A stretch of 36,390 nt of DNA from a virus (IMGVR_UViG_3300010398_000021:1-36390); one strand, 5' to 3'. Positions 16,856-34,997 are shown, numbered from the stretch's first letter. Notes: generated from the letters alone by a model not told the origin. Numbers and translations are program-made.

Positions 16856-18346
16856 TTGGACGAACTGCTCGCTTGGTTGGCTTCGTGCAACAAGGACCCA
16901 GTGGCATTTGTGCTCAGTGCCTTTCCTTGGGGCAAAGCAGGCACCACGCTTGAGCGGGCCACAGGACCTGAACCTTGGCAGCTTGAGGTCCTGAAGAGAG
17001 TCCAAGCGGGGCTCCCTCTCCGTTCCGCCATCCAACTCGCCGCAGCTACCGGCCACGGGGTCGGCAAATCTGCCCTCGTGGCATGGCTGATCCTGTGGTC
17101 CTTCTCCACTGGGCCTGACACGCGCGGCGTCATCACCGCCAATACCGAAGCCCAGCTGAAAACCAAGACCTGGGCCGAACTCGGTAAGTGGTTCAATCTC
17201 TTCATCGGCAAAGACCAGTTCTACCTCACTGCCACCGCTCTTCTCTCCCGTGACCCGTCGCGTGAGCGCACATGGCGCATCGACCAGGTCCCATGGAGCG
17301 AGAAGAACACCGAGGCCTTCGCCGGGATGCACAACAAAGGCAAGCGCATCCTGATGATAATGGACGAAGCCAGCGCCATCCCCGACATGATATGGGAGGT
17401 CGTTGAAGGTGCCCTTACAGACAGTGACACTGAGATTATCTGGCTTGCGTTTGGTAATCCTACTCGAAACACCGGAAGATTTAAAGAATGCTTTGCGGGC
17501 GGGCGATTTGCTAAATGGTGGCAAACCATTCAACTGGATAGTCGAACCGTTAGCATCACTAATAAAGACCAGATCAACCGATGGATAGAAGCCTATGGCG
17601 AAGATAGTGACTTTTGCCGAGTTCGAATCAAGGGCGAATTCCCGAGACACGGCGAGATGGAATTCATCGCGGCGGCCGACGTTGACGCAGCGATGCTTCG
17701 CGACGTCACTTCCTCAATATCCGATCCCCTATCCCTTGGATGCGACGTGGCTCGATTCGGCAGCAATGAGTCGGTCTTGGCTTTTAGAAAGGGTCGAGAT
17801 GCACGAACGATCCAATGGCAGTTCTACCGAGGGATCAACACCGTCGAACTCGCCACAAGGATAAACGATGCGTATCACTCCTATCGGACTGATGGAATAT
17901 TCATTGATGGGGGCGGTGTTGGGGGCGGCGTTGTTGATAATGTTCGTCATATGGCCCTGCATTGTTGGGAAGTCCAGTTCGGCGGGAAGGACGACGTCGG
18001 CGGTTACGACACGGGAAACCAAGGTGAGAAGTACGCCAATAAGCGAGCTGCCATGTGGGGCGCTATGCGGGAGTGGATCAAGCAAGGAGCAATCCCGAAT
18101 GATCCTGAGCTTAAAGCCCAGCTTATCGGCCCGACTTACACATATAACAATCGCAACGAAATCCAACTAGAAACCAAGGAAGAGATGATGCGGCGAGGGG
18201 TCGAGTCCCCCGACCGGGCGGACGCTCTTGCCTTGACGTTCGCTTATCCCCTCGCCGCACACGCCTACGCCGGTGGTGAGTACCCACACAAGCCCCTAGT
18301 CGAGTACGAGTACAACCCCTTCGACACGGAGAGAATGCGTGCCTGA
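16856..18346 (+). CDS. terL: Terminase large subunit
   Basis: Walker A TGHGVGKSAL, ITANT, MIMDEASAIPD, GNPTR, nuclease GCDVARFG, IDGGGVG, SPDRADALALTF. Confidence 0.95.
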   Translation: MDELLAWLASCNKDPVAFVLSAFPWGKAGTTLERATGPEPWQLEVLKRVQAGLPLRSAIQLAAATGHGVGKSALVAWLILWSFSTGPDTRGVITANTEAQLKTKTWAELGKWFNLFIGKDQFYLTATALLSRDPSRERTWRIDQVPWSEKNTEAFAGMHNKGKRILMIMDEASAIPDMIWEVVEGALTDSDTEIIWLAFGNPTRNTGRFKECFAGGRFAKWWQTIQLDSRTVSITNKDQINRWIEAYGEDSDFCRVRIKGEFPRHGEMEFIAAADVDAAMLRDVTSSISDPLSLGCDVARFGSNESVLAFRKGRDARTIQWQFYRGINTVELATRINDAYHSYRTDGIFIDGGGVGGGVVDNVRHMALHCWEVQFGGKDDVGGYDTGNQGEKYANKRAAMWGAMREWIKQGAIPNDPELKAQLIGPTYTYNNRNEIQLETKEEMMRRGVESPDRADALALTFAYPLAAHAYAGGEYPHKPLVEYEYNPFDTERMRA

Positions 18347-20040: not shown

Positions 20041-21819
20041 ATGCCGATCCAAGCCGGAACCGTACCAAGTATAGGACCCAACTTCAGGCCGGTCACGAAA
20101 ATCCCGTCCGAGGCCGACCTGAAACTGCGGCAGCATGCGGAAGGTCGCCTGATAGGACTCCGAGTAAACCGCTACTCATGGTGGGTCCACTGGCGTGAGC
20201 TGGCCGACTTCATGCTGCCGCGCCGCTACAAGTGGCTTATCACTCCGAACCAAATGGGCCGAGGATCGCCGATCAATCAGCACATGATTGACTCCACGGC
20301 GACCCTTGCAGCATATAAATGCGCGGCGGGGATGATGAGCGGCACGGCGAACCCCACGCGGCAGTGGTTCCAACTCCGCGTGGGGACCCTCGACTCTACC
20401 CAAACCGGCCCCGTCTCACTATGGCTTGCTGAGTGTGAACGTATCCTCATGCTCATCTTCCAAGAGTCCAACTACTACACCAGCGTTGCCATAGCCCTCC
20501 TCGATCTGGTGATCTTCGGCACCTGCGTCCGGGTGATCTACGAAGACTTCGACAACGTCATCACCTGCATCAACCCATGCCTCGGTGAGTACTACCTTGA
20601 AAACGGATCGAACCTCCAAGCCAACGCCGTCTACCGAGAGTTCACCTACACCGTCAACCAAGTCGTCGAGCAGTTTGGCATTGAGAACACGTCAGCGGCT
20701 ATACAGAGACTCTATGCTCAAGGCGGGACCTCTCTCACAAGAGAACTCGTTGTTGCGCACGCTATTGAGCCGAACCACGACGGACGCAAGTTCGGCATAC
20801 CGGACAAATTCAAATGGCGCGAAATCTACTGGGAATGGGGCGGGTCGGCCGCTCCACAAGGCGGCTCGTCGTACGCACCGAGCCTTTTGAGGAAGCAGGG
20901 TTTCTACGAGCAGCCCTTCGCGGCGGGTCGGTGGGACCTCGTCAGCAACGACGCCTACGGCCGCTCTCCGGGAATGGACGCCCTGCCGGACACCAAGCAA
21001 CTCCAACAAGAGTCTCGGCGGAAGGCGCAGGCAATCGACAAGCAAGTAAATCCCCCCATGCTGGCCGACATTCAGCTGAAGAACCAACCAGCTTCGCTGC
21101 TGCCCGGTGGCGTTACCTACGTCAGCGGCCTGATGAACTCTACTAAGAACCAAGGCTTCGCCCCGGTTTACCAAGTGAATCCTAACATCAAGGACATGAT
21201 GGAGGACCTCAATGAAGTTCGGCAACGGATCAGCAAAATCTTCTATAATGATGTCTTTGCTGTTATCTCCCAGTACCAAACCCGATCAAACGTTACCGCA
21301 GCTGAAATTGACGCTCGACGGGCCGAGGGATTCCTCGCCTTGGGTCCTGTATTCACCCGGCTCCAAGTCGAGTTCTTTGGAAAAGACATCGAACGAGTCT
21401 TCGGAATCGCCCAAAGGGCCGGGCTGATCCCACCGGCCCCGCCCGAGGTTCAGGGCCAAGGCATCAACATCAAGTACCGCTCGATGCTCGAAATCGCCCA
21501 AGACGCGGCGGCCTCGGCCGGTATCGAGCGCATCTTCCAAGTCGCCGGGCAGATGGGTGGCATCGACCCGGCGGCAATGGACAACGTTGACATTGACTAC
21601 GGCATCGAGAAGATGTCCTTCCTGCTCAACAACGACCCGCGCCTGATCCGTTCGCCCGACGCACTACAGCAGATTCGACAGAACCGGCAGCAGCAGCAAC
21701 TCCAAGCCGAGCGTGCGCAGCAGGCCGAGCAACTTGCCAAGGCGGCGAAGGTCGCCGGTGATGTTGACGTCGGCGGCGGACAGAACGCCATTCAAGCCAT
21801 GCTTGGGCAGCAACCGTGA
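20041..21819 (+). CDS. Portal (head-tail connector), T7 gp8/BPP-1 type
   Basis: WRELADFMLP, DSTA..A...AAGMMSG, WFQL, DLVIFGT, RW......YGRSPGMDALPD.KQLQ, TAAEI..R..E....LGPV..RL. Confidence 0.95.
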   Translation: MPIQAGTVPSIGPNFRPVTKIPSEADLKLRQHAEGRLIGLRVNRYSWWVHWRELADFMLPRRYKWLITPNQMGRGSPINQHMIDSTATLAAYKCAAGMMSGTANPTRQWFQLRVGTLDSTQTGPVSLWLAECERILMLIFQESNYYTSVAIALLDLVIFGTCVRVIYEDFDNVITCINPCLGEYYLENGSNLQANAVYREFTYTVNQVVEQFGIENTSAAIQRLYAQGGTSLTRELVVAHAIEPNHDGRKFGIPDKFKWREIYWEWGGSAAPQGGSSYAPSLLRKQGFYEQPFAAGRWDLVSNDAYGRSPGMDALPDTKQLQQESRRKAQAIDKQVNPPMLADIQLKNQPASLLPGGVTYVSGLMNSTKNQGFAPVYQVNPNIKDMMEDLNEVRQRISKIFYNDVFAVISQYQTRSNVTAAEIDARRAEGFLALGPVFTRLQVEFFGKDIERVFGIAQRAGLIPPAPPEVQGQGINIKYRSMLEIAQDAAASAGIERIFQVAGQMGGIDPAAMDNVDIDYGIEKMSFLLNNDPRLIRSPDALQQIRQNRQQQQLQAERAQQAEQLAKAAKVAGDVDVGGGQNAIQAMLGQQP

Positions 21820-22295
21820 CCGATGAGCCCTACAATGCAGCAGAGCGTCAGCATATTCGGCAGGCGGCGAAGCAGTCGAAGCTCATTGCTGTCCAGCGCG
21901 GCCAGTTTATTGCCAATATTATGTCCACTGTCCCCGGCCGAGCGTGGGTCTTCGACCTCCTTGAAGCAGCCCACGTCTTCGCTAGCACATACTCCGACAT
22001 TGCCCTCCGCACCGCCTTCGGCGAGGGCGAACGATCAATGGGCCTCAGAATCCTGGCCGACATCATGCAGGCCTGCCCCGACCAATACGTCACAATGATG
22101 AGAGAACGAAATGAGCGATCCACAACTGAACAATCCCGGCGTCCAGCCGCCACCGCAGCAGACTCCACCGCCGGAGCCCCCGCCGAAGGAGCCGACGACG
22201 GAGACGAAGCCGCCGACACCGACGACGACATCTACGACGAGTACAACCGAGCCCAAATCGCTCCTCAATCAGGAACCGAAGACCGGCGCACCTGA
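21816..22295 (+). CDS. Bbp19-like protein
   Basis: MST..GR.WV..LLE...VF...AF.EGERS.GL.ILA pattern; position between portal and scaffold. Confidence 0.75.
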   Translation: MTDEPYNAAERQHIRQAAKQSKLIAVQRGQFIANIMSTVPGRAWVFDLLEAAHVFASTYSDIALRTAFGEGERSMGLRILADIMQACPDQYVTMMRERNERSTTEQSRRPAATAADSTAGAPAEGADDGDEAADTDDDIYDEYNRAQIAPQSGTEDRRT

Positions 22296-22797
22296 GAAGT
22301 ACGAAGAGTTCAAAGTCCCTGAGGGCTACTCGCTCGACGCCGAAGTCGCTACCGAAGCCGGTAAGCTCTTCAAGGACTCCAACCTGAGCCAAGCTCAAGC
22401 TCAGAAGCTAGTCGATTTCTACGTCTCAAAGACGAACGAAGCTTTCCGCCAGCCATACGAAGCCTACGAGGCTCTCCGAACTGAGTGGCGAGAAAAGGCG
22501 AAGGCTCACCCTGAGATCGGGGGGAGCTTCGACCGAGTCCTCTCTACCGTCGCCAAGGCGATCGATAGCGTGGGCGATGCCGCACTCGCGTCTGAGTTCC
22601 GGCAAGTGATGGACATGACCGGCGCTGGAGACCATCCGGCCTTCATCCGGTTATTCTACAAACTCGCTTCTCAGCTAACGGAGGGTCGCCCCATCATGGG
22701 CAACGGCCCTGCCAAGGCTGGGCAACAGGACCCGTCGAAGGGCAGGCCCGTCACAGCGGCGCAAGCCCTTTATCCGACACTCCCATCTGGAGCCTAA
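22111..22797 (+). CDS. Capsid scaffolding protein
   Basis: Pro/Thr-rich N-terminus, APEKYE.F.VPEG, LSQAQAQKLVD, GAGDHPAFIRLF, AQALYP; directly upstream of capsid. Confidence 0.8.
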   Translation: MSDPQLNNPGVQPPPQQTPPPEPPPKEPTTETKPPTPTTTSTTSTTEPKSLLNQEPKTGAPEKYEEFKVPEGYSLDAEVATEAGKLFKDSNLSQAQAQKLVDFYVSKTNEAFRQPYEAYEALRTEWREKAKAHPEIGGSFDRVLSTVAKAIDSVGDAALASEFRQVMDMTGAGDHPAFIRLFYKLASQLTEGRPIMGNGPAKAGQQDPSKGRPVTAAQALYPTLPSGA

Positions 22798-22800
22798 CAC

Positions 22801-23844
22801 ATGGCAACCATAGGCGCTTTGGCGCTTACGTATGGCGACTGGGCCAAACGCATGGATGACGGCTACCGTGTAGCCACCATCATCGAACTGCTCAGTCAGA
22901 CGAACGAAATCCTCGAAGACATGCTCGTGATGGAGGGCAACCTCCCCACTGGCCACAAGACCACCGTTCGGACCGGCTTGCCGATCGGTACATGGCGCCT
23001 GCTCAACGCTGGCGTCCCGAATGCCAAGTCGACCACGGCGCAGATCGTCGACACGTGCGGCAATCTGGAAACCTACGCCGTGATCGACAAGGACATTGCC
23101 GACCTCAACGGCAACACCGCTGAGTTCCGGCTCAGCGAAGTGAAGGCGTTCCTTGAGGGCATGTCGCAGCAAGTGGCGACGACGCTCATCTACGGCAACC
23201 AGTTTGCCAACCCTGAGCGTTTCACCGGCCTTGCGCCTCGGTACCCTACTGTCACCACCGCCAACTCTCAAACGGCGGCCAACGTCCTCGATGCCGGTGG
23301 CACGGCGTCGGTGAACACGTCCATCTGGATCGTGTGCTGGGGCGCGGATACGCTCTTCGCCACCTTCCCGAAGGGCAAGATCACCGGCCTCCAACACCGG
23401 GACATGGGCGAGTGGCCGGTGCAGGATAGCGCCGGTAACACGTATCAGGCCTACCGAGATCACTTCAAGTGGGAGATCGGTCTGGTGCTTCGTGATTGGC
23501 GCTACGCAGTCCGCATCGCCAATATCGACACCACGATCCTCACCGGTGTCTCGGCAGCCAACCTGATCAACTTCCTCGTCCGAGCGCTGTACCGTCTGCC
23601 GACCCAGCCAGTCAGCGCCGGTACAGTCCAGACCTCGGACACTCCGGAAGTTCGGGCCAACATGGGCCGCACGATCATCTACGCTAATCGTGTCGTCCGC
23701 ACCTACCTCGATCTCCAAGCTATGAACAAGACCAACGTCCTGCTTCGTATCGAAGAGTTCGACGGTAAGCCGATCACAACCTTCCGAGGCGTACCCGTTC
23801 GGACCTGTGACGCAATCCTCAACACGGAAGCAAGGGTGGTCTAA
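22801..23844 (+). CDS. Major capsid protein, BPP-1 Bbp17 type
   Basis: IIELLSQTNEILEDM..MEGNLPTGH.TTVRTGLP, FTGLAPRY, TSIW.V.WG, GL.LRDWRY.VRIANID, FRGVPVR..DAILNTEA. Confidence 0.95.
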   Translation: MATIGALALTYGDWAKRMDDGYRVATIIELLSQTNEILEDMLVMEGNLPTGHKTTVRTGLPIGTWRLLNAGVPNAKSTTAQIVDTCGNLETYAVIDKDIADLNGNTAEFRLSEVKAFLEGMSQQVATTLIYGNQFANPERFTGLAPRYPTVTTANSQTAANVLDAGGTASVNTSIWIVCWGADTLFATFPKGKITGLQHRDMGEWPVQDSAGNTYQAYRDHFKWEIGLVLRDWRYAVRIANIDTTILTGVSAANLINFLVRALYRLPTQPVSAGTVQTSDTPEVRANMGRTIIYANRVVRTYLDLQAMNKTNVLLRIEEFDGKPITTFRGVPVRTCDAILNTEARVV

Positions 23845-23845: not shown

Positions 23846-24427
23846 ATGATCCTTGACAGACTCCTCACCTTCACTGGCAACGTTGCCACTGGCACTATCA
23901 CTGACTCGCCGACGGCGACCGGTGATGCCAGCAACGTCATCGACCTTGGCGTCAACTATCCGAGCCCGCCTCCAACGCTGTTGTCCACCGATCCCGGTGG
24001 CCCACTGGCGCGTGGCGGTGCCCGTGACATCGGCGTTGGCGATGACCCAATGCTCAAACTGTTGGTCGTCGTCACCACCACCTTTGCTGGGCTGACCAGC
24101 CTTACCTGCTCCCTCTCAGGGGCGCCGGATAGCACCACCACACCTAACACCCCTGGCACATTCACTACCATGTGGACGAGCCCGGCGGCTGTGGTTCTGG
24201 CCAACCTCGTGCAAGGCGCGTACCTCGCCAACGTGGACGTGCCTCGGCAAATCCCTGGCCAACCGATGCCTCGGTTCCTCAAGCTCACCTTCACGGTGGC
24301 TGGGACCGGTACGGGCGGCTCGGTGTATGCTGGTATCGTGATCGACCGGTTCGACCAGCCTTGGGGTGGCACGGCTACAGTGCCTGCACCTTCTGGCTAC
24401 GTCCCCGGCGTTGTGGTCAACAACTAA
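23846..24427 (+). CDS. Capsid cement/decoration protein, Bbp16-like
   Basis: MILD..L.F, SNVIDLG, RDIGVG...L.VVVTTTF, RFLKL.FTV.G...G.V.AGIV.D. Confidence 0.8.
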   Translation: MILDRLLTFTGNVATGTITDSPTATGDASNVIDLGVNYPSPPPTLLSTDPGGPLARGGARDIGVGDDPMLKLLVVVTTTFAGLTSLTCSLSGAPDSTTTPNTPGTFTTMWTSPAAVVLANLVQGAYLANVDVPRQIPGQPMPRFLKLTFTVAGTGTGGSVYAGIVIDRFDQPWGGTATVPAPSGYVPGVVVNN

Positions 24428-24834
24428 TGCGCTGGCTATGGGCAATCGTGGTTGGGGCGGCACTTGCCGCCCTGACCGGGTCCTCGGCCATACCACAAGG
24501 CATTGGACCACAGCAGTTCTTTTGCAACAGGTCTGCCAACGGCGCTGGTGCCGTTGGCACGACGCAGATTGTAGCTCCAATCGCCACTCAGGCCGTGACG
24601 TTTTGCGGCTTTGAGGTAACGGCGGCGGCTGCGGCTACCTTCCAGATCATCACAGGCGCAGGTGCCACCTGTGGTACCAACACTCTGAACATAACGGCGG
24701 CATATGACCTCGGCGCGCTTAGCGGGCTCACCGGCACCAGCCGCCAAGTCTCTGGCGCACAGGGCGCAGGGATGTGCGTCATCGTTACTGGCACCGGCCC
24801 TGTTCACTATACGGTGTACTACGCGCAGCTATAG
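24427..24834 (+). CDS. Signal-peptide-bearing beta-rich protein, 4 Cys (paralog 1)
   Basis: True start ATG 24427 (TAATG): MRWLWAIVVGAALAALTGSSA-IPQG; aligns with 24844-25272. Confidence 0.75.
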   Translation: MRWLWAIVVGAALAALTGSSAIPQGIGPQQFFCNRSANGAGAVGTTQIVAPIATQAVTFCGFEVTAAAAATFQIITGAGATCGTNTLNITAAYDLGALSGLTGTSRQVSGAQGAGMCVIVTGTGPVHYTVYYAQL

Positions 24835-24843
24835 GAGGGCCTA

Positions 24844-25272
24844 ATGCGCAGGCTTTGGCTAGTAGTCGCTGCCCTTATCTGTTCGCTGGGGCCTGCCGTT
24901 CCGCAGGGGCAGGTTGGCCCGGCCAACATGATCTTGTGTAACCAAGTCGCCACTATGGCGGTTGGGCCCAGCACGATCCAGACACTCATTCCCGGCTCGG
25001 CACAGAAGACGATCAACCTGTGTGGTTGGCACGTCACCAACACCGCTGCCACTGGTACCTTCAGCATATCTTGGGGACAGCAGACCACGACCCCGTGCGA
25101 CACCAACACCAAGGTCCTTGTCCCGGCAATGAACGTCACCAACACGGCGCCGTCTGCTGACCACTCCGGTTATGCCTTCACCTCAACCCCGGCGGCTACG
25201 CCCGGCTACGCCATCTGCGTCACGCCTAGCGTCGCCACCATCGCAATAGTCCTATACTACAGCGTCATCTAG
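24844..25272 (+). CDS. Signal-peptide-bearing beta-rich protein, 4 mature Cys (paralog 2)
   Basis: AGGAGG SD; MRRLWLVVAALICSLGPA-VPQG; CN, CG, C.TNT, CV, YY conserved with paralog 1. Confidence 0.75.
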   Translation: MRRLWLVVAALICSLGPAVPQGQVGPANMILCNQVATMAVGPSTIQTLIPGSAQKTINLCGWHVTNTAATGTFSISWGQQTTTPCDTNTKVLVPAMNVTNTAPSADHSGYAFTSTPAATPGYAICVTPSVATIAIVLYYSVI

Positions 25273-25281
25273 GAGGGCCCA

Positions 25282-25800
25282 ATGGCCAGATGGAAGTTAA
25301 TTGAGGCCCACTACCTCAATGCGACCGGCAAGGATCAGAGTGAGTGGGAGTCAAAGGAAACCGACCGTACCTCCGGCCGCACGGCTCGGATCGTTTACAA
25401 GGTGCCCCGGCTGCTCGATCCTAAGGACCAAGCCGACTTCAATTACCGTGAAGATGGCATCATCGTTGTGTGCCATGAAGGTAAGGGCAAGCCGAGGGAC
25501 ATCGTTTTCGAGGGCGACCCTACGCCTGGGATGGAGCCGATGGACGACGAGGCCATGGCCATCACCGAAGCTCTTCGTCCCTCTTGGCATGACCCGATCA
25601 ACGAGTTCTCGGCGATGAGCCGTGATGAGCGGATGATGCTGAACCTGCAAGAGCAGATCGCCGACATTAAGCAGAACGGTATAGCAGGGCCGAAGATAGT
25701 ACAGGCAGGTGGCGTCAGCCGAGAAGAGTTCGAGGCGCTACAGGCCAAGTACGCGGAGTTACAGGCCCAGTTAGCTGAGAAGCCCACACGGAGGGTGTGA
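25282..25800 (+). CDS. Hypothetical protein (172 aa) with C-terminal coiled coil, ends PTRRV
   Basis: AGGAGG SD. Confidence 0.75.
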   Translation: MARWKLIEAHYLNATGKDQSEWESKETDRTSGRTARIVYKVPRLLDPKDQADFNYREDGIIVVCHEGKGKPRDIVFEGDPTPGMEPMDDEAMAITEALRPSWHDPINEFSAMSRDERMMLNLQEQIADIKQNGIAGPKIVQAGGVSREEFEALQAKYAELQAQLAEKPTRRV

Positions 25801-26150
25801 TGCCCCTAATTGCCGCCGTAGGAGGCCCACAGACAGTCGCGTCGGCGTCTGGTGGCAAAGTCAAAGGGTTCAACGCCATAGGTGCCACACCCATTGTCGT
25901 AGCACCTGCCAATGCGCAGCGGGTGCGGATCGTTTTCCATAACCCCGGCGCTGCTGCCACGCTCTACGTGGCCCCGATGGTCGACCGAGATGGGCTGCCA
26001 GTGGTGCCAACGCTTACTGCTTTAGGCGCAACCTTCGCCGTCTTTGGCGGCGCCTACGTTACGATCGAGGGTGAGTGCCAAGGTGCTTGGCAGTGCTTGG
26101 CCTCAAGCGGCGTCAACAACCCTCTAACGGTGATGGATAGCAATGTATAA
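25797..26150 (+). CDS. Beta-rich hypothetical protein (117 aa), possible structural protein
   Basis: GGAGG SD; ANAQRV.I.FHNPG...LYV pattern; no signal peptide. Confidence 0.7.
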   Translation: MMPLIAAVGGPQTVASASGGKVKGFNAIGATPIVVAPANAQRVRIVFHNPGAAATLYVAPMVDRDGLPVVPTLTALGATFAVFGGAYVTIEGECQGAWQCLASSGVNNPLTVMDSNV

Positions 26151-27798
26151 GCATCTGCTAATTATTGCCGTTCTGGCGGCAGCTGGATCGCTTGTACCCT
26201 CGTCTCCGGCTGCCGCTCAGGGTTGCGGCTCCAATAACCCCAACTGCATTGTGCCAATGGCACCGCCGGGCGACGCCTCTAACCGAGCGGCCAGCACATT
26301 GTGGGTGCAACAGAACGCTGCTGGTCCAGGGGCAGGCGTTAGTAGCTGGAACGGCCGGTCGGGTATAGTCGTTCCGGCTATTAACGACTACAACTTCACG
26401 CAGATAGGTCCCGGGCTGCTCGGCTTCAACCAGATGCCGACGGTTGCCGACAGCCAAGTCTATATGAACACCGGCGCCACGGTGGCTGGCGTCACAATCC
26501 CTAACTGCACCGGCGGCCAGCAGAGCCTGCTCTACACCGCCTCGTCGCACACCTTCAGCTGCAACACCGTCAACCCAATCGTCAACAGCGTGTTCGGCCG
26601 GACGGGCGTCGTCACCTCGGCCAACGGCGACTACTCCTTCGGCCAAATCTCCGGCCAGACCAGCTTCGCCCAGCTGCCAGTGGCGGGCATCAACTCCGTC
26701 TACGGCAACATCAGCACGCCAAGCGCCTTGGCAATGCCAGCGTGCAACAACCCGAACCAAGCTCTCCAATGGGTTCCCAACGGCGGCTTTAGCTGCCTCG
26801 TTATATCCGGTGGTGGAGGCGGTGGTGGTCTCCCCACGATCAACGCCGACAGCGCCCTCGGCAACCCATCTGGCTCTGCCACCAACCTCCTGACCGGCAT
26901 GGCCCTACCAGCCTGTACAGGCAGCACCAGCGCCCTACAATACTCCACTGGGACCCACGCGTTCAGCTGCGGCACAATCACTGCCACGTCGCCGGTGACG
27001 AGCGTCTTCGGTCGCACTGGTGCCGTCGTCCAGGTGAGCGGTGACTATACCTTTTCCCAGATCGGCGGCACAGCCACCCTAACCCAGCTACCGACAGCTA
27101 CAGCCAACTCTCTGCTTGGTGGCCTGACGGCCACTGCCCCAAGCTACTTGGCTGTGCCGTCATGTAGCACTGCCAACCAAGCCCTTCAGTGGACCAGCGG
27201 CACCGGCTTCAGCTGCGTCACGATCACGGCTGGCACAGGCACGGTTACCTCGTTCTCGTCCGGTAACCTAGCGCCACTGTTCACCACGGCGGTTACCAGC
27301 CCGACGGTTTCACCGGCTCAGACGTTTACCCTCTCTGCTGCTGCGGCCAATACGGTGTTCTCGAACTGGACCAACAGCAGCGTAGCCCTTCCACAGTTCA
27401 ACACCTATCCGACCTGCAATGGCGCCAACCAAGTCCTCAACTACTCGCCGGGCACTGGGCTCACCTGCGTCACCCTTCCAGCACCACCGGCGAACCCGTT
27501 GATAGCATCCGGCACCGTGGCACTAGCCACAGCGGCTATTGCCTCAGGCGCATGCGCCACAGCAGTGACGGGCACAGCTACAGCCGGTAACGCCGCCAAC
27601 ATCCTCACCACAGACATCGTCACCACCTCCTTCAATGGAGATCCCACTGGCGTCGTCGGCTACCAACCGCTCACCACTGGTATGCTCACCATTATCCCTT
27701 ACCCAACGGCTGGTGCAGCTAACTTCAAGGTCTGCAACATCACTAACGCGTCAATAACTCCGGGAGCGATAACGTTGAACTGGCGAGTAGCCCGATGA
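26143..27798 (+). CDS. Fibre-like repeat protein with signal peptide and paired cysteines
   Basis: MYKHLLIIAVLAAAGSLVPSSPAAA-QG; PMAPPGDASNRAASTLWVQ fibre motif; three VxSxxGRxGxV repeats; five P-x-C...L-x-[WY]...C repeats; 14 Cys. Confidence 0.8.
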   Translation: MYKHLLIIAVLAAAGSLVPSSPAAAQGCGSNNPNCIVPMAPPGDASNRAASTLWVQQNAAGPGAGVSSWNGRSGIVVPAINDYNFTQIGPGLLGFNQMPTVADSQVYMNTGATVAGVTIPNCTGGQQSLLYTASSHTFSCNTVNPIVNSVFGRTGVVTSANGDYSFGQISGQTSFAQLPVAGINSVYGNISTPSALAMPACNNPNQALQWVPNGGFSCLVISGGGGGGGLPTINADSALGNPSGSATNLLTGMALPACTGSTSALQYSTGTHAFSCGTITATSPVTSVFGRTGAVVQVSGDYTFSQIGGTATLTQLPTATANSLLGGLTATAPSYLAVPSCSTANQALQWTSGTGFSCVTITAGTGTVTSFSSGNLAPLFTTAVTSPTVSPAQTFTLSAAAANTVFSNWTNSSVALPQFNTYPTCNGANQVLNYSPGTGLTCVTLPAPPANPLIASGTVALATAAIASGACATAVTGTATAGNAANILTTDIVTTSFNGDPTGVVGYQPLTTGMLTIIPYPTAGAANFKVCNITNASITPGAITLNWRVAR

Positions 27799-30044
27799 GG
27801 TTGGCAATGGTCTTTCTGGCGTACTGCTTTGCAGTAGCGCTCGCTCAGGCGCAGGTCGGCCCTATGTTTCCAGGGCCGGGACCAGCGTCCTTCGGCGCGC
27901 CGCCACCATCGTGCACATCTATTGGGACGGCGGGCGCCAATGCCCAAACCGCTACGTCGGTGCTGACTACCACTGGCGCCGTTCCGGCTGGTGCCGCCAT
28001 CGTTGTTGCCAGCACTACTTCGGGCGATGTCTTCACTAATCAAGGCGGCAACATATCTGGCATCACCGATAGCGCAGGTAACGTATACACAAACGTAAGG
28101 GTTTGGCTCCCTGGTGCAGTGTTCAACGGCGCCGTCGTCGAGCTATGGGTTACGGGTAATGCTAAGGCGATAGCCACCGGTGGTACAATTACAGTCAGCT
28201 ACACCGCTTCGTTATCTACTCGCCCGTTTGTGTGGAGTGCGGTTGCCGTCAATAACATTAGTGGGCTGGATGTAAGCAATATCACCACCGGGATAACAAC
28301 GACTACGCCAACGGTGAGCGTGACGCCAACCCAAAGCCCCGGCCTTGCCATCGGGTTCGTGGGCGGGAATAGCACGTCCGCCCCAACGATTACAGAGGCG
28401 AGCGGCTGGGCGAACTCCGCGCGTAGTACGGCCTTCAATCAAGCTGGCGTTTTCCAGAGCCTCAACGTGGCGTGTAAACAGTTTCCAACGGCTGTTGCAC
28501 AAACCTACAACCCAACCTACAGCGCGGCATTCAATAATGCCGCTGACATCATAGTAACATTCCCGGCTGTACAGCCGGTTGGATCCTGTATCCCCAACAC
28601 AGCAAGCAACACAGTCGGCAACGTCAACAACACCTCTATTATGCCAGCTACCGACGTCGATGTGCTGGCGCTACAGCACTTCGACAACAACGGCACTGAC
28701 ACTAGCATCTGGAACCGGACAGGGACGCTGACTGGCACCGCATCGTTCTCTAGTGTGCAGAGCAAGTTCGGTGGGTTCTCTCTATTAAATCCCACTGGAG
28801 TGGCGACCGCCTATCTGCTGCCGCTTAACCAGTGGTACGAAACGTCTTTTCAGGACTGGACGATTGAGTGGTGGTACTTTGCCAACAATACCACTCAGAC
28901 CGGCTTCAACTTCTTCACCGACAACAACCAAACCCAGTTCGGGCTGGACAACGTAACCAACGGCTACTTTGTAAACCTAGCTGCGACCAACCCATGGGCC
29001 TACACGGCACCCATTCCATTGACTACTGGCTGGCATCATGTGGTCTGGCAGCGCAGGTACGACACAACAAATGGCGGCGCTGGTGCTGGCTGGAACTGGT
29101 ACTTCTGGCTTGACGGTCAAGCTAGACCTGTCACAAATACGACACCTCAGGGTGCCGGTGGTCCTGCCATTGGGATGGTTGGCGGCTTCACTGGGGGACC
29201 GACCACAAACGCCTTCCGATATAATGCCGGTTTCAATGGCTACATAGATGAGCTACGCATCTCTCAAGTGGCCCGATACGGCGGCAGCCCATTCTTCACC
29301 CCGCCGACTGTGCCATTCTGTGACCCACAATCTGGCACCACGGCTGGAGCACTGCTTGGCTTTTCTGCGCACCAAAATAATCAATTCACCCCACCATCAC
29401 CGCAGCCACCATCCATTACCACTTTTAGGGCTGCACCAGCCGGATCGACGATCGTCATAACTATAGGTGGGCAGACAGCTTCTGGTTCACCTATTACGGC
29501 TATGACTGATAGCGCTGGTAATACTTATACAAGGGCAAGGCTATCGAGTAGTGGGTTGGTAGTGCTCGACCAGTGGTACGCCAAGAACGTGACCGCTTTG
29601 CCTGCCGGTGGTACGATCTCGTTCACTGGGACTGGCACGGTCATATCGTTTGACGCCGCTGCAATCTTTCTCACCGGCATGAACGCTACGACGCCGCTCG
29701 ACGTGCAGAACAGTGTAGCTACCAGCGGTGTAAGCCCAACGATCAGCACCACGACAACCCGCGCCAACGAGGTAATGGTCGGTGCATGGTCAGGCTACAC
29801 TTGGCAATGTAACGCCGCTAACCCGCCAGTGAGGCCGATGGGCGCTGTTGAGGCTCCCGGCTGGCAACCTTGGCTGATCAGATACATTACGGACGTCCAG
29901 ACCTGCCAACAGGTAACGACCTACATATCGCTTAAATCGGCACCGACGGCTGGCTCTCAGACCTTCAATCCTACTATCATCGACAATGGCAATGCCAGCA
30001 TTCAGAACAATGGCCACTTGTCCATATTGGGGTTTGGGCCATGA
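27795..30044 (+). CDS. Signal-peptide-bearing adhesin-like protein with LamG/ConA-like domain flanked by a duplicated domain
   Basis: MRLAMVFLAYCFAVALAQA-QV; LQHFD, SKFGG.SL, DWTIEWW, GWHHVVWQR, FWLDGQ, FNGYIDELRIS; two TDSAGN.YT-containing domains. Confidence 0.8.
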   Translation: MRLAMVFLAYCFAVALAQAQVGPMFPGPGPASFGAPPPSCTSIGTAGANAQTATSVLTTTGAVPAGAAIVVASTTSGDVFTNQGGNISGITDSAGNVYTNVRVWLPGAVFNGAVVELWVTGNAKAIATGGTITVSYTASLSTRPFVWSAVAVNNISGLDVSNITTGITTTTPTVSVTPTQSPGLAIGFVGGNSTSAPTITEASGWANSARSTAFNQAGVFQSLNVACKQFPTAVAQTYNPTYSAAFNNAADIIVTFPAVQPVGSCIPNTASNTVGNVNNTSIMPATDVDVLALQHFDNNGTDTSIWNRTGTLTGTASFSSVQSKFGGFSLLNPTGVATAYLLPLNQWYETSFQDWTIEWWYFANNTTQTGFNFFTDNNQTQFGLDNVTNGYFVNLAATNPWAYTAPIPLTTGWHHVVWQRRYDTTNGGAGAGWNWYFWLDGQARPVTNTTPQGAGGPAIGMVGGFTGGPTTNAFRYNAGFNGYIDELRISQVARYGGSPFFTPPTVPFCDPQSGTTAGALLGFSAHQNNQFTPPSPQPPSITTFRAAPAGSTIVITIGGQTASGSPITAMTDSAGNTYTRARLSSSGLVVLDQWYAKNVTALPAGGTISFTGTGTVISFDAAAIFLTGMNATTPLDVQNSVATSGVSPTISTTTTRANEVMVGAWSGYTWQCNAANPPVRPMGAVEAPGWQPWLIRYITDVQTCQQVTTYISLKSAPTAGSQTFNPTIIDNGNASIQNNGHLSILGFGP

Positions 30045-30376
30045 GGCGGTGGCAATGGCTTATAGCTGCGTTCGCTCTGGTGGCGCTGCTGCTTATTGCT
30101 TGGGCCTTCCACGTCGAGGCACAGCCCAAGCCACTGTTGGAACCAATCTCGCCGCTGTATGAGGAGCACATAATAGAACTTGATCGGCAGGCAATGGACG
30201 CTGCCTACGAAGATAGGCTCCAGCATCTATTCGCGGTGTGGACAGTGGACGATACTGACCAGCCCCAACGAGTCGTCGCTGGCGCCAACAAAGCGCGCCG
30301 GGCTTATATTGCGGCTATGGTGGCAATAGACAAGAGGGCACGGGAACTAAAGGAGCTACAGCAAAAGGGGAAGTGA
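30041..30376 (+). CDS. Exported or membrane-anchored helical protein (111 aa)
   Basis: MRRWQWLIAAFALVALLLIAWAFHVEA-Q; directly upstream of endolysin. Confidence 0.7.
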   Translation: MRRWQWLIAAFALVALLLIAWAFHVEAQPKPLLEPISPLYEEHIIELDRQAMDAAYEDRLQHLFAVWTVDDTDQPQRVVAGANKARRAYIAAMVAIDKRARELKELQQKGK

Positions 30377-31191
30377 GCATGGCACAACCTGTTAACCCAA
30401 TGGTTATTGATCTGTCGCACTGGGACCCCGCTGACGACTACAGCGCCGTTATGGATGATGGTATTCACGGCGTCATCTACAAGGCTACGCAGGGCACCAG
30501 CTACACCGACGATACCTACGTCTCTCAGCGCTCTGCTGCTAGAGCCGCTGGGCTGAAGTGGGGGGCATACCACTTCGCCGATAGCTCTAGTACACAGGGC
30601 CAAATCGACAACTTCATGAGGTTCGCCGCGCCAGACCCCGATGAGTTGTTCTGCCTCGATTGGGAGGACAACGGCGGCGCCAAGATGAGCCGTTCACAGG
30701 CCGAGCAGTGGATACAAGGCGTGGAAGATCGCCTTGGCCGCCCGAACCAATGCGTAGTCTATGGCGGCAACACCATCAAGGAAGCAATCCCCAACTCGCC
30801 AAATGAGTTCTGGTCAGCGCGGCGCTTGTGGCTCTGTCAGTACAGTGACTCTGCGTCGTGGCCGACAGAGGTTTGGCCGGTCTATTGGCTCTGGCAATTC
30901 ACCGATGGCCAGTATGGGCCGGGTCCACATTCAATCAGTGGCGTTGGCCACTGCGACATTAACAGCTACCGGAACGGCCCGCCAGAGCAGCTAGAGGCAG
31001 AGTGGGCAACTGGTCAGTCCGAGCCGACGCCGCCAGAACCAACCCCGACGCCGGATGCTGGTGAGGTCTCGGTGGTGGTAGCGACCACGCCGGGAGTCAT
31101 TGTCAAGGTCAGGCAAGTAGTGTGGACGCCACAGCAGGCGATGATGACCCGGGAAGTCTTTAAGAAGATGCGTGAGAAGGAGGCCAAATGA
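30373..31191 (+). CDS. Endolysin, glycoside hydrolase family 25 muramidase
   Basis: VIDLSHWD, YKATQG, GAYHF, LDWED, VVYGG, LWQFTD, CDINSY; Pro-rich linker. Confidence 0.92.
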   Translation: MSMAQPVNPMVIDLSHWDPADDYSAVMDDGIHGVIYKATQGTSYTDDTYVSQRSAARAAGLKWGAYHFADSSSTQGQIDNFMRFAAPDPDELFCLDWEDNGGAKMSRSQAEQWIQGVEDRLGRPNQCVVYGGNTIKEAIPNSPNEFWSARRLWLCQYSDSASWPTEVWPVYWLWQFTDGQYGPGPHSISGVGHCDINSYRNGPPEQLEAEWATGQSEPTPPEPTPTPDAGEVSVVVATTPGVIVKVRQVVWTPQQAMMTREVFKKMREKEAK

Positions 31192-32432
31192 AAATAGTCA
31201 TTAGCTCTGGCCACGGACAGCTTATCCGTGGAGCTTCGTCCAGCCCTCGGCCACCTTATCTTGACGAAGTTGATGAGGCTAGGAAGGTGGTTAACCGAGT
31301 AGCGGAGCTTTGGAAGCAATCCGGCGTTGGCGTAGACGTGTTCCATGATAACACGTCTACGTCACAAAACCAGAACCTCAACACGATCGTCAACTACCAC
31401 AACTCGCGCACGCGCGACCGAGATGTGTCTGTGCACTTCAACGCCTATCAGAAGTACACGGCCGCACAGAAGCCCAATGGTATGGGTACGGAGTGCTTAT
31501 ATGTTACCCAGTCTGCCCTTGCTACTACTGTGGCTGGTGCAATGGCCAGCGCTGGCACCTTCATCAACCGAGGGCCGAAGTATCGTAGCGACCTCTTCTT
31601 CCTCAACAACACCCGGATGCCAGCCATACTCCTTGAGGTGTGCTTCGTGGATGCTGAGGTCGACGGCAACAAGTACCGGCAGAACTTTGAGCGACTGTGC
31701 GTTGCCATTGCGGAATCTGTCAGCGGAGTGAAGGTGCAAGGTCCGCCGGTTGAGCCAGAAGAACCGCCGGTCGAGCCACCTGTCGAGCCGCCCACTGAGC
31801 CTACCGGCAACAACCACCTCGACATGACCGTCAGAGGCGAAGGCAACTTCACCGTCCTCTTCAACGGGGAGCCCATCACCGTTGGCGATGGCTCTACCAG
31901 CAACCAAGTAGCCGCCGCGCTATCGTTTACTGGCGACGTCAACATCACTATCAACGGACAGGACTTCCAGAACTTCCAGCCGACGGAGCCCTCTGGCCCA
32001 CAGGCTAACCACACCAACATCACCGCCACAGTATTTGGAGGATCAAGTGATCCCAATAACTCTGCCTATCCACCTTATGATGCGTTGGGGGACACGGAGT
32101 TGTACCTCGCCCTGCCCGTCAACGTCCCCGACGCAGCCGTCCGTAACCGTGGTGTCCGCGTGTATAACAGAGCGACAGGCCAAAGCGCTGTCGGCAAGAT
32201 TCGGGATAAAGGACCCTGGCTGGTTGATGACGAGGCTTACTGCAATGGAACCGCCACGGCCATCGCCGTTACCTGCTACCAGAACCAAACGCCACTCCCA
32301 CGAGGCCCCAATGCCGGTCGAGTGCCGAGCAACGACGCTGCCATTGATCTATCCCCCGCACTATCAAGAGCTATCGGAATATCTGGAAAAGGCAAGGTAG
32401 ATTGGGAGTGGGTTGAGCCAGAGGTAGCATGA
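31188..32432 (+). CDS. N-acetylmuramoyl-L-alanine amidase (Amidase_3) with C-terminal RlpA/DPBB-like domain
   Basis: ISSGHG, DEVDEA, SVHFNA, AILLEVCFVD; PPVE linker repeats; VRVYN..TG...IRDKGPW and AIDLSPAL..AIG. Confidence 0.88.
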   Translation: MKIVISSGHGQLIRGASSSPRPPYLDEVDEARKVVNRVAELWKQSGVGVDVFHDNTSTSQNQNLNTIVNYHNSRTRDRDVSVHFNAYQKYTAAQKPNGMGTECLYVTQSALATTVAGAMASAGTFINRGPKYRSDLFFLNNTRMPAILLEVCFVDAEVDGNKYRQNFERLCVAIAESVSGVKVQGPPVEPEEPPVEPPVEPPTEPTGNNHLDMTVRGEGNFTVLFNGEPITVGDGSTSNQVAAALSFTGDVNITINGQDFQNFQPTEPSGPQANHTNITATVFGGSSDPNNSAYPPYDALGDTELYLALPVNVPDAAVRNRGVRVYNRATGQSAVGKIRDKGPWLVDDEAYCNGTATAIAVTCYQNQTPLPRGPNAGRVPSNDAAIDLSPALSRAIGISGKGKVDWEWVEPEVA

Positions 32433-32641
32433 CTGTTACGGGCACCATCAATGCGGCCGTCGATGCACTTAGGCATCAGCCGATGATGCTGTTCGTGATC
32501 GTCCTCAATGTCATCATCATCGGGGCGATCTTCTACACCAACAGGGAGTCACAACAGGCTGACCATGCACTAATCTCTAAACTCTATGAGCAGCACGCCG
32601 AACTATCTAAGCTGCTCTACAACTGCACGCCAACAAAATGA
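32429..32641 (+). CDS. Small single-TM protein, holin/antiholin candidate
   Basis: TM MMLFVIVLNVIIIGAIFY after endolysins; GAGGT SD. Confidence 0.55.
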   Translation: MTVTGTINAAVDALRHQPMMLFVIVLNVIIIGAIFYTNRESQQADHALISKLYEQHAELSKLLYNCTPTK

Positions 32642-32964
32642 ACCTCAATGACTTCATACGCAAGTTACAGCAGGACGTCAAAGCTGAGCTTGGCAGGCAG
32701 GTCGGCGTGGTGCAGCAGAAGGTCGAGGTCAAGGTCATTGAGGCAGTTAAGAAGGTACCAGACGTTGTTGGGGTTCTTGTATCGAAGGAGAGTCCAGTGG
32801 GCGCGTTTAACAAGGCTATAGTAGCGCTGGTTATGTCGGCGCTTATCATCATCGAGACGCTAACAGGCTTCAACATAGGGCTTACCGAGGGCACGCTAGT
32901 TACCATCCTCGGCGTCCTGACACCCATCTTAGTGTGGTTGATACCGAACTATCCTAAGGACTAG
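32638..32964 (+). CDS. Two-TM protein, holin candidate
   Basis: KAIVALVMSALIII...LVTILGVLTPILVWLIPN. Confidence 0.65.
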   Translation: MNLNDFIRKLQQDVKAELGRQVGVVQQKVEVKVIEAVKKVPDVVGVLVSKESPVGAFNKAIVALVMSALIIIETLTGFNIGLTEGTLVTILGVLTPILVWLIPNYPKD

Positions 32965-32966
32965 AG

Positions 32967-33206
32967 ATGGCGCGGTTCACCCCGCGCGAACAGGACGTGC
33001 TGAAGGCGTTAGAGAGCGGAGTAAGCAATACCAAGGAGATAGGGCTCAGGTTGGGGATCAGAGAAGGAACCGTAAAGGTCCACCTAGGGAACATGTATAA
33101 GAAAGAGAACGTTCACAGCCGCACGTCTCTGCTGGCTAAGCTACTCCGCGAAGAGCGGAGAGAGGAATTGCCTGTGCAGTACAGCTTCCAATGGCGCAAG
33201 GGCTAG
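32967..33206 (+). CDS. Stand-alone LuxR/GerE-type HTH regulator
   Basis: FTPREQDVL..L..G.SNTKEIG.RLGI.EGTVKVHL.NMYKK..V.SRT.L. Confidence 0.88.
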   Translation: MARFTPREQDVLKALESGVSNTKEIGLRLGIREGTVKVHLGNMYKKENVHSRTSLLAKLLREERREELPVQYSFQWRKG

Positions 33207-33209
33207 GCC

Positions 33210-34997
33210 ATGACCGTATCAACCACTATTAACAAGATCACGTATCAAGGCAACGGCTCGACGACGGCGTTCAGTTTCAACTTCGCCTTCCCGGCAGGGC
33301 TGACTAGCTCTCAGGCGGCACAGTTGCTATCGGTGGTGGTTGTTGACCCGACTGGTACATCAACGCCAATCAACTTTGGACCGGGCGTGACACAGTACCA
33401 GCTCAACATACTGCTACCGATAGCGCCTAATCCAACCAGCGTGGGTGGCGTGGTCACCTACGCGCCGAACGGTGTGCCACTAGCCGTCGGCAACTTCATT
33501 ACTATCACCCGCCTTCTACCCGATGTTCAGCCGACCTCGCTCCAGGCTCAAGGCACGCTCTATCAACCGGTGGTCGAGCAAACGTTCGACTATCTGACCA
33601 TGCTAACCCAGCAGCTGATCAATGCAGCTGGGCGCAACATCATGGCGCCGCCGACTGACCCGGCGGGGCTCAACTACGTCCTACCGGCTGCTGGTGCCCG
33701 TGCTAATTCAGCGCTGGTGTTCGACGCCAGTGGCAACGTCGCTACTGGCGTCCTACCCTCCGGCGGCGTGATCTCTACGCCCATGATCCCAGTGTGCGGC
33801 GCCGCCTCGATACCCGTGGCGCGCACAGCGCTGGGCCTTGGCACGATAGCCACCGAGGGCATCGGCGGTGGCCTTCAAGATGATGGCGCTAGCAACGTCA
33901 GGGTTATCTTTGCCATCAACAAGATCAGTGGACCGGCTACCGTCGTTATTGGGAACTACCTTCAGAGGTTCAAAGCGGTTGGCCCACTGACGCTGACGCT
34001 AAGCAAAGCCAGCACAACGTACTTCAATGGGTTTGGGTTCTGGCTGGAGGTGCTACCACAGTCAACCGGCCCAGTGACCATTGCCATCGACGCAGGTGAC
34101 CAGTTCGAGAACCTGCCGAGCGGCGCCAGCGTCGTTGCGCAGCCGGGCTCGTCTGCGTTCATCAGCACCGATGGCGCGTCCAATGCCATCTGGTACCTAG
34201 AACTCTCCCGTGGCGCTCAGGCCACGGCGCCGCCGGTTGGATCGTTCTCTGGTGGCCTGTCCATTGATGTGGCGAGCAACACGACAGCGACTTGCAGCGT
34301 TGGATCGGTTGTCGTTAGCGATGGGCAGAACTACTTCACGACGACCCCAACCGGCGGCATCAACACAGCCACCATCGGTCCCGGCGGCCTTGATGTGGGG
34401 CCACTGGCCGTCAACACGTTCTACAATGTGTGGGTAATCTACGGCACTCTATCGGGCACGTCGACGTGGATCATGAGCCTCGCCAGTACGTTCACGGCGC
34501 TGAAGGCCAATCTACCGGCGACGTACAATGCCGGTGCCCTGCTGGGCATATTGAAGACCGCCCCAGCCTCGACGAACCTGATGGGGACGAGGCAACGGTT
34601 ACGGCGGGTCGAGTACCTGCCGGGCGTCGGCGCAACCACCGGCCTCCCCAGTGTGATCAGTGGGACTCAAGGTAGTATTAGCGTTCCCACTTGGGTTAGC
34701 ACGGCGCTAACTGGCATAGTCCCGGCTGGCGCAGCGTCGTACGACGTAGTGCTATCGTATCAGACCACCTCGGGCGCGTCGGCTTGTATGGCAGCGCCCA
34801 GCAGCAACTATGGCGCAATCACCTCGACAACCAATCCGCCGCCGCTGTCGTTGAGTGGCTTCCAGACGGCTGGTGCGGGGCTCAACAATAATAGCCCAGA
34901 GACAGCTATGGCAACCTTCCTCGGCCCTGGCCCGGTGTTCTATGCCAGCAGCGGCGCCGGTGGCGTCTTCATCAAGGGATTCGACCTTAACATATGA
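33210..34997 (+). CDS. Tail fibre with T7 gp17-like N-terminal anchor domain
   Basis: YQGNGSTTAFSFNF, ITITRLLP, EQTFDYLTMLTQQL, ARTALGLGTIAT fibre motif; no signal peptide. Confidence 0.85.
   Translation: MTVSTTINKITYQGNGSTTAFSFNFAFPAGLTSSQAAQLLSVVVVDPTGTSTPINFGPGVTQYQLNILLPIAPNPTSVGGVVTYAPNGVPLAVGNFITITRLLPDVQPTSLQAQGTLYQPVVEQTFDYLTMLTQQLINAAGRNIMAPPTDPAGLNYVLPAAGARANSALVFDASGNVATGVLPSGGVISTPMIPVCGAASIPVARTALGLGTIATEGIGGGLQDDGASNVRVIFAINKISGPATVVIGNYLQRFKAVGPLTLTLSKASTTYFNGFGFWLEVLPQSTGPVTIAIDAGDQFENLPSGASVVAQPGSSAFISTDGASNAIWYLELSRGAQATAPPVGSFSGGLSIDVASNTTATCSVGSVVVSDGQNYFTTTPTGGINTATIGPGGLDVGPLAVNTFYNVWVIYGTLSGTSTWIMSLASTFTALKANLPATYNAGALLGILKTAPASTNLMGTRQRLRRVEYLPGVGATTGLPSVISGTQGSISVPTWVSTALTGIVPAGAASYDVVLSYQTTSGASACMAAPSSNYGAITSTTNPPPLSLSGFQTAGAGLNNNSPETAMATFLGPGPVFYASSGAGGVFIKGFDLNI

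Follow-up and report, generated by a model that had tools for sequence, protein, structure and literature searches.

Predicted secretory leaders and paired cysteines on fibre-slot and capsid-adjacent gene products of an uncultured epsilon15/BPP-1-like podovirus and its relatives

In the textbook account, tailed phages are assembled entirely in the reducing cytoplasm of the host. Some phage proteins with Sec or lipoprotein signals are encoded beside tail or fibre genes and act in the envelope (Lom and Bor of lambda, Llp of T5); these are outer-membrane barrels or lipoproteins of known families. The present study concerns a cluster of leader-bearing genes in the virion operon of a virus from the IMG/VR database (IMGVR_UViG_3300010398_000021:1-36390). 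The whole 36.4-kb stretch, 74% complete according to CheckV, is called the window hereafter. The cluster lies between a capsid cement gene and the lysis genes (Table 1), and the products of its genes at 24427, 24844, 26143 and 27795 (SPa135, SPb142, SP551 and SP749) each carry a predicted Sec-type leader followed by an even number of cysteines. These four proteins and the one encoded at 30041 (TM111) gave no match to a Pfam family of the Lom, Bor or Llp type and have no lipobox, and the large ones are fibre-like.

Fibres produced with a signal peptide have been described in Bdellovibrio bacteriovorus: the mosaic adhesive trimer (MAT) fibres are reported to be trimers resembling tail fibres or tailspikes, with variable tips (S74, lectin, beta-sandwich) and a function outside the cytoplasm (PMC10769870). 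MATs are cell-encoded, displayed by the predator and do not come from a phage virion operon; their likeness to the window proteins is one of kind only. In the Agrobacterium myovirus Milano, the main text of the report describes numerous disulfide bonds that hold together capsid, collar, neck and tail, with small capsid-decorating proteins linked via N-terminal cysteines (PMC10491603). The word 'periplasm' does not occur in that main text and 'signal' occurs in it just twice; cytoplasmic assembly followed by later oxidation is assumed for the Milano proteins. A PDB sequence search with the leaderless window protein g117 returned only a faint match to the Milano minor capsid protein gp10 (E 0.31).

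By its virion genes, the phage of the window is classed as an uncultured epsilon15/BPP-1-like podovirus, with the virion module in the right half of the window. The GP7-type major capsid protein (MCP), Bbp16-like cement, T7-type portal, tubular proteins A and B and internal proteins are common to its clade and to the epsilon15/phiV10/BPP-1 virion module. The genes after cement are leaderless in phiV10, the leader-bearing genes of the window being lineage-specific additions, and the window's lysis cassette lies inside the structural region, unlike in the epsilon15/phiV10/BPP-1 module. The Burkholderia phage BcepC6B (NC_005887) is a cultured podovirus of this kind with the same head module type and, unlike the window, has no leader-bearing genes after cement. 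Its gp19 gene, annotated 'tail fiber protein', immediately follows that of the gp18 fibre and precedes the lysis cassette; the gp18 N-terminus resembles that of fibre595, the ordinary leaderless tail fibre of the window. The gp19 protein has a leader-like start (MKKLIAILLAVPALALGA) and a module (MPSCSTSSSALNYTTGTGIGC) like the five found in SP551. No paper on the location of gp19 was found by literature search.

Leaders were called with an in-house rule that combines charge, a hydrophobic 9-mer and the presence of small residues at -3 and -1. A preliminary description of the window had singled out five ORFs, each said to open with a basic-hydrophobic-small-residue leader and to give a mature chain beginning at or within two residues of a Gln, and all five were found as described, each opening with a basic residue and a hydrophobic run: the leader MRWLWAIVVGAALAALTGSSA at 24427 is followed by IPQG, MRRLWLVVAALICSLGPA at 24844 by VPQG, MYKHLLIIAVLAAAGSLVPSSPAAA at 26143 by QGCG and MRLAMVFLAYCFAVALAQA at 27795 by QVGP, and the N-terminal stretch MRRWQWLIAAFALVALLLIAWAFHVEA at 30041 precedes QPKP. 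By inspection and by the rule, the first four show the features expected for Sec export and signal peptidase I cleavage (basic n-region, h-region of approximately 7-15 residues, small residues at -3 and -1). In relatives, the cleavage sites predicted by a crude site picker were of the form AxA in 92/143 cases and VxA in 20/143. The lipobox pattern [LVI][ASTVI][GAS]C is absent from the window's leaders (24844 reads A-L-I-C and the SPa copy of relative L004 reads L-A-L-C), and the leader Cys is not conserved in alignment A1 (see below). The twin-arginine (Tat) motif is not conserved either: the RR of 24844 is RK, KK or KR in homologs, and that of 30041 is RQ in L004. Two conserved leaderless genes (25282 and 25797, encoding g172 and g117) lie within the cluster.

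The leaders recur in relatives, which argues for more than chance, and their form is kept across homologs as their sequence drifts; in the counts that follow, related sequences are not independent, a problem that was reduced by clustering in the cysteine-parity count. Alignment A1 (34 sequences) was made from 32 of the 36 SPb142 relatives found by word-index search, together with the SPa135 and SPb142 proteins of the window. All 34 have M-K/R, a hydrophobic run and an AxA-type or small-x-small site, all varying in sequence; the mature start Q..VGP..ILCN is conserved and C32, C60, C85 and C125 are invariant. A search of 1.84 billion representatives with the SPb142 profile gave 2252 clusters at E<=1e-3 (384 at E<=1e-10). 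Among the best 149 of the 2252, 126 were full-length (125-200 aa) and 123 of these carried a leader, with mature Cys counts that were even in 119, odd in 4 and zero in none. Another 14 were shorter calls (11 with a leader) and nine were long proteins (283-748 aa), all nine with a leader. The claim that these late-operon proteins bear genuine secretory leaders is thus supported by comparison with homologs, including those of SP551 described below; homologs mostly without leaders, a refuting condition of the preliminary description, were not what the comparison gave.

SPa135 is a paralog of SPb142 (BLASTP E 4e-10, 39% identity across 101 aa); in L004 and L003, its leader sequence differs and the mature start QGIGPQQFFCN is kept. 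The AF2 model of SPb142 (pLDDT 88) shows a helix at residues 2-13 and, after it, a beta sandwich. Its nearest clusters in the Atlas are 100% viral, the A1 profile gave one weak match in 185,579 species genomes (E 9e-4, taken as spurious), and by these searches SPb142 is the founder of a large, virus-only family. In BFVD, SPb142 resembles many phage proteins of 105-120 aa whose function is not known, a small number of which bear the name of virion protein; the best PDB sequence match of A1 reached only E 0.6. The long leader-bearing proteins P0266, P0275, P0280, P0287, P0291, P0296, P0297, P0302 and P0305 all have the SPb142 jellyroll, which lies at the C-terminus in at least seven of the nine and there resembles a tip domain. 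For the small leader proteins encoded after cement, a Lom-type outer-membrane barrel was considered and rejected: these proteins combine short length with a beta-rich make-up and paired Cys, and representatives of three of their four sequence types matched no Pfam family.

SP551 is built as follows: leader, a Cys28-Cys35 loop, the N-terminal fibre motif PPGDASNRAASTLWV (form PxxGDxSNxxASTxWV) starting 16 residues after the predicted cleavage site, five modules of the form 'P.C...17-18 aa...C', and two GR(S/T)G..V...DY.F.QI motifs. No tandem DNA repeats were found in 26143-30044, and the modules are visible only at the protein level. Of its 119 database relatives, 79 pass the leader rule, and the mature Cys counts of these were zero in 3, even in 74 and odd in 2; the other 40 include many shortened gene calls and some true leaderless fibres. 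The gene following g117 carries a fibre motif (PxxGDxSNxxASTxFV), and 26 of the 27 distinct proteins with this motif have a hydrophobic leader. In 21 of these 26, a Cys stands on each side of the motif (QN.TC.TRP.GD.SNAC...); in the window-type fibre, the Cys loop comes just before it. In the loci around L129 with a downstream ORF, leader and Cys pair were present in 24/26. One of these 26 loci has an unrelated 145-aa insert. In L169, a Cys- and His-rich ORF of 145 aa lies at 2869-3306 between g117 and the expected fibre start; by eye, it is HNH-endonuclease-like.

The fibre of L129/L161, the single leaderless case in both counts, starts MSETTITRPVGDSSNAQASTAFV, with two stop codons just upstream of the start, and both motif-flanking Cys are replaced. 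This anecdotal case suggests that, without the disulfide, the same protein is able to function from the cytoplasm.

The mature Cys counts of the five proteins (4, 4, 14, 6 and 0, from 24427 to 30041) agree with the preliminary description; those of the window's leaderless proteins are 5, 5, 0, 3, 1, 1, 2, 4, 5 and 3. Even Cys counts in exported proteins are an established sign of disulfide formation. Parity was compared among ORFs of the fetched loci (278 with a leader and 1154 others, mature chains being set by the crude site picker), grouped at 30% identity into 321 clusters: the leader-bearing clusters were 51 even, 9 odd and 10 without Cys, and the other clusters, from a set that includes some spurious ORFs, were 76 even, 104 odd and 71 Cys-free (odds ratio 7.8 by Fisher test, p 5e-9). 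This strong enrichment of even counts fits the disulfide folding proposed to take place outside the cytoplasm. Taken together, conserved Sec-type leaders and paired Cys predict periplasmic export, cleavage and disulfide folding. We regard export of the leader-bearing proteins as highly probable, and export with disulfide folding is well supported by the comparisons; across the sequences compared, the coincidence of leader and paired Cys is real and general.

Gene order was examined in 66 loci found with the SPb142 profile. It runs MCP, cement, one or two small leader-bearing genes, SPb142, g172 (after SPb142 in most loci) and g117, followed by a large protein (usually leader-bearing), sometimes a fibre595 homolog, then g164, tubular proteins A and B, and internal proteins. 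Among loci with both cement and SPb142, the ORF directly after cement has a leader in 60/61, and most of these leader-bearing ORFs belong to families other than SPa135. A cement-anchored census, blind to leaders, was carried out in addition: starting from 462 relatives, it retained 80, of which 68 extended at least 1300 bases downstream of cement. A leader-bearing ORF came directly after cement in 55/68 loci, and SPb142 was present in 24, with a leader on all 24. The g172 protein gave no Pfam, PHROG, PDB or cultured-phage match; its gene position matches small genes after cement in phiV10, and its likeness to phiV10p12 was judged by eye only.

The slot of SP749 is variable between relatives. 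Residues 161-523 of SP749 match phrog_3545 (E 3e-20), no Pfam match was obtained at E<=0.01, and the nearest Atlas cluster (score 0.95) is viral with Laminin_G_3 in 38% of its members; the protein has a putative LamG/ConA-like lectin core. A search of 5.8 billion proteins returned only the window's own sequence (the near-identical 749-aa copy of L004 is not separately listed there). In L003, the slot is occupied by a 319-aa protein (11851-12810) that opens with a leader of this kind, has a QV..PGPG mature start and carries a GH54 arabinofuranosidase-like domain (PF09206, E 2.9e-12); it also matches phrog_10356 'virion structural protein' (E 3e-19). Between L003 and the window, a cassette seems to have been exchanged downstream of an N-terminus that is conserved. 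More generally, the large proteins in these slots match phrog_10356, GH54-like, beta-helix, Collar and Peptidase_S74 families. The earlier label 'fibre/decoration-like' finds partial support: SP551 lies in a conserved fibre slot and has a fibre motif, and SP749 looks LamG-like; for the small SPa135 and SPb142, the jellyroll is a type of fold that occurs in cement proteins and also in many unrelated proteins.

The docking domain of fibre595 was used as a reference for attachment to the particle. Residues 1-147 of fibre595 match 14 PHROG tail, fibre or spike families, and neither SP551 nor SP749 matches any of these families for the N-terminal podovirus docking domain of approximately 150 aa. 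The fibre595-type domain itself is present in only one of five near-complete or complete relatives. In G003 (96% complete), the only ORFs of at least 200 aa other than head, tubular and internal proteins are two leader-bearing ones, and the genome has no leaderless fibre candidate of at least 200 aa. Outside the main cluster, G003 (41544-43841, minus strand, 765 aa) and L039 (1288-2853, 521 aa) each encode a further large leader-bearing protein directly upstream of the terminase genes. In relative G001/L004 (99% complete), tubular proteins A and B and large internal proteins are encoded beyond the position of the window's right end, so the particle would have a normal podovirus tail set, separate from the leader genes. 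Searches of cultured phages (tblastn, 50,697 records) returned nothing for SP551, SPb142, g172 or g117, one fibre from L179 gave only a weak tailspike match, and no cultured member of the clade was found in them. A PDB sequence search with alignment A4 was empty.

The explanation that we favour, with a probability of about 0.5, is that four late gene products are exported, cleaved and disulfide-folded, and that the fibre-like ones attach to the particle at lysis. The products of 24427, 24844, 26143 and 27795 would reach the host periplasm via Sec, where signal peptidase I would remove the leader and the chains would fold, the host Dsb system forming their disulfide bonds. The particle would be built in the cytoplasm, and the fibre-like products would join it only when lysis mixes the two compartments, SP551 and perhaps SP749 docking onto the released particle by the mature N-terminus; the two small jellyrolls may have a glycan-binding or decorating role. 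Docking is suggested by the fibre-slot position, the translational coupling, the fibre and lectin domains, the leaderless variant, the lack of a leaderless fibre candidate in G003, and the presence of a fibre595-type docking domain in just one of the five near-complete or complete relatives, and taken by itself it stands at even odds or slightly below. BcepC6B gp19 is a cultured lead in favour of the explanation as a whole.

Several points weigh against this explanation. We know of no tailed-phage virion that takes up periplasmic proteins. A literature search aimed at the question turned up no paper that deals with Sec signals in fibres or other virion proteins of tailed phages, which is no proof that there is none; 'signal peptide' is absent from the paper on LME-1 and occurs only within the reference list of that on 7-7-1. 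The window phage has an ordinary leaderless fibre (33210), so SP551 would not be needed for adsorption. The leaderless, Cys-less fibre of L129/L161 comes from a single 5.2-kb contig and is anecdotal. The similarity between BcepC6B gp19 and SP551 is local and weak (BLASTP E 0.063, 41% over 61 aa). Thirteen of the 68 loci in the cement census have no leader-bearing gene after cement and go straight to a g172-type gene; the small leader genes would thus be a common addition, not needed for building this capsid type. The complete relatives G005 and G007 keep small leader-bearing proteins and have leaderless large structural proteins, from which the small proteins do not simply serve leader-bearing fibres. 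An origin of SPb142 as a diverged copy was rejected both for cement (hhalign of A1 against cement alignment A2, probability 0.1; no Pfam match) and for g117 (hhalign probability 0.1).

The exported, disulfide-bonded proteins may instead never join the particle and act in the periplasm, on the infected-cell surface or free after lysis, which is possible, though we think it doubtful. They could then bind or cut the polysaccharide receptor against superinfection, prevent progeny from sticking to debris, or clear slime. The lectin-like SP749, the GH54-like replacement in L003 and the weak beta-helix match of SP-552 in G004 point this way; the Collar and S74 chaperone domains found in some relatives are, by contrast, characteristic of virion fibres. 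SP551 lacks the docking domain seen in fibre595 and the window's phage has a normal fibre of its own; against this, the gene slot that follows g117 keeps its place and its translational coupling throughout the clade, and G003 would have no fibre at all if its leader-bearing proteins stayed off the particle. Exported non-virion proteins encoded near tail genes have precedents in T5 Llp and lambda Lom and Bor, although no Ail/Lom or other outer-membrane family was matched in Pfam. The 13 loci without the small genes count for a free role too, as does a leader-bearing PEP-CTERM protein of the early region (see below), by which the phage would send other proteins to the envelope; the one variant that works without leader and Cys pair does not fit easily with a function confined to the periplasm.

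It is improbable that the hydrophobic N-termini are not export signals at all, the true starts lying downstream or a retained helix anchoring the protein in the particle or inner membrane during assembly. The record's own gene calls do start 24844 at M38 (P0002, 105 aa) and 26143 at M39 (P0037, 513 aa), and 4/36 database members of the 142-aa family are also called short, with the leader trimmed as in the record; gene callers can therefore hide leaders. Both methionines are replaced in relatives (M39 is Leu in L083 and absent in L052). The ATG of 24844 has AGGAGG six bases upstream, and those of 24427, 26143, 27795 and 30041 overlap the stop codon of the preceding gene; that of 26143 lies inside the overlapped 'N-V-stop' codons of g117, at the same site as the start of the leaderless L129 fibre. 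Since the downstream Met is not kept and the start position is common with L129, the upstream starts are the conserved ones, and the Shine-Dalgarno sequence and overlapped starts also favour the upstream ATG. The concern that the true starts might lie downstream of the leaders was checked in this way and did not hold. Some fibre leaders have no basic residue (e.g. MFNILILLLGLLAAPAMAQ) and the 30041 protein is probably a membrane anchor, which both speak for a non-export origin; on the other hand, the leader region is kept as protein across families, with in-frame indels and a small-x-small site then Gln, the even-Cys bias has no cytoplasmic explanation, and lipobox and conserved twin-arginine motif are both absent.

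Least probable of all is that the genes serve lysogenic conversion as morons, a prophage expressing them to alter the host surface, and came to lie in the late operon by accident of insertion: the genes are insertions relative to phiV10 and BcepC6B (where cement is followed straight by small leaderless genes) and the SP749 slot swaps cassettes, but no integrase or repressor was seen in the window (DNA polymerase A, a UvrD-type helicase and a PD-(D/E)XK nuclease are among its replication proteins), the gene starts overlap with adjacent virion genes rather than having their own promoters, and the A1 family is wholly viral in its Atlas clusters and, save for the one weak stretch, missing from the species genomes.

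The features of the window are listed in Table 1. Pfam and PHROG scans agreed with the surroundings given in the preliminary description: Bbp16-like cement precedes the cluster, the GH25 and Amidase_3 genes come after it, and the 33210 fibre has no leader.

Table 1. Virion, cluster and lysis features of the window (coordinates from the first base of the window).
Feature	Coordinates	Strand	Details
Large terminase	16856-18346		Pfam/PHROG scan
Portal, T7-type	20041-21819		PF12236
Scaffold	22111-22797		Pfam/PHROG scan
MCP, GP7 type	22801-23844		PF20911; 52-56% identity to best cultured matches
Bbp16-like capsid cement	23846..24427	+	Left landmark of cluster; PF21190 E 6.2e-10; phrog_427 E 8e-15
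SPa135, 135-aa secreted-type jellyroll, SPb142 paralog	24427..24834	+	Predicted leader 1-21; 4 mature Cys
SPb142, 142 aa, eight-strand jellyroll	24844..25272	+	Predicted leader 1-18; 4 invariant Cys
g172, conserved leaderless 172-aa protein	25282..25800	+	
g117, conserved leaderless 117-aa jellyroll	25797..26150	+	Last codons overlap fibre gene start
SP551, 551-aa fibre-like protein	26143..27798	+	Predicted leader 1-25; 14 mature Cys; phrog_16348 E 5e-9
SP749, 749 aa, likely LamG/ConA-like lectin core	27795..30044	+	Predicted leader 1-19; 6 mature Cys
TM111, 111-aa helical protein, first gene of lysis cassette	30041..30376	+	18-residue N-terminal hydrophobic stretch; 0 Cys
GH25 muramidase			Directly after TM111, starting at TM111 stop codon
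Amidase_3 endolysin	31188-32432	+	
LuxR/GerE-type DNA-binding protein, 79 aa	32967-33206	+	PF00196 E 1e-14; between lysis genes and tail fibre gene
fibre595, ordinary leaderless tail fibre	33210..34997	+	Podovirus-type N-terminal docking domain

The 30041 product had been counted in the preliminary description as a fifth member of the leader-bearing set. That assignment was not upheld: its hydrophobic stretch is longer, the protein is helical and without Cys, and its gene heads a lysis cassette coupled to the endolysin genes. TM111 is probably a membrane-anchored lysis-cassette protein and not part of the leader set. Its ATGA overlaps the SP749 stop, and it gave only weak matches (DUF2244, E 1.3e-4, below cut-off; phrog_32111). 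The N-terminal anchor and helical tail of an i-spanin are present; no spanin family was matched in Pfam or PHROG, and no lipobox ORF that could be an o-spanin partner was found in 29900-33300.

The two wall hydrolases, GH25 and Amidase_3, are both leaderless and are adjacent in the phage genome; the Amidase_3 endolysin has a C-terminal extension of 220 residues without a family match. Between it and the fibre at 33210 lie two small membrane proteins, then the LuxR-type regulator. Just upstream of the packaging genes, an ORF at 15641-16261 (plus strand) has a weak GIY-YIG nuclease match (E 3.6e-4, below the Pfam cut-off) and may be a homing endonuclease. In the early region, the 210-aa protein encoded at 9103-9735 (minus strand) starts with a leader of classic type (MKKLLLATAMAMTPIAAMA) and has a PEP-CTERM sorting motif at the C-terminus (PF07589, E 6e-9). 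This is a pointer to a host that is diderm and possesses an exosortase system, into whose pathway the phage would send the protein.

Contrary to textbook assembly, the clade puts predicted secretion leaders and paired Cys on fibre-slot and capsid-adjacent gene products. If these proteins join the particle, assembly would include an extracytoplasmic step, host Sec and Dsb would be phage dependency factors, and gene callers that trim leaders would hide the signal. More tentatively, the clade as a whole could have a second, periplasmic branch of virion morphogenesis, in which fibres and small jellyrolls are Sec-exported, disulfide-linked by the host and added at lysis, so that infectivity would need host Sec/Dsb and a post-lysis maturation. 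If the proteins stay off the particle, they would form a large, fast-evolving set of free periplasmic lectins and glycosidases made late in infection, which is also little studied. For either outcome, BcepC6B gp19 provides one cultured handle for tests.

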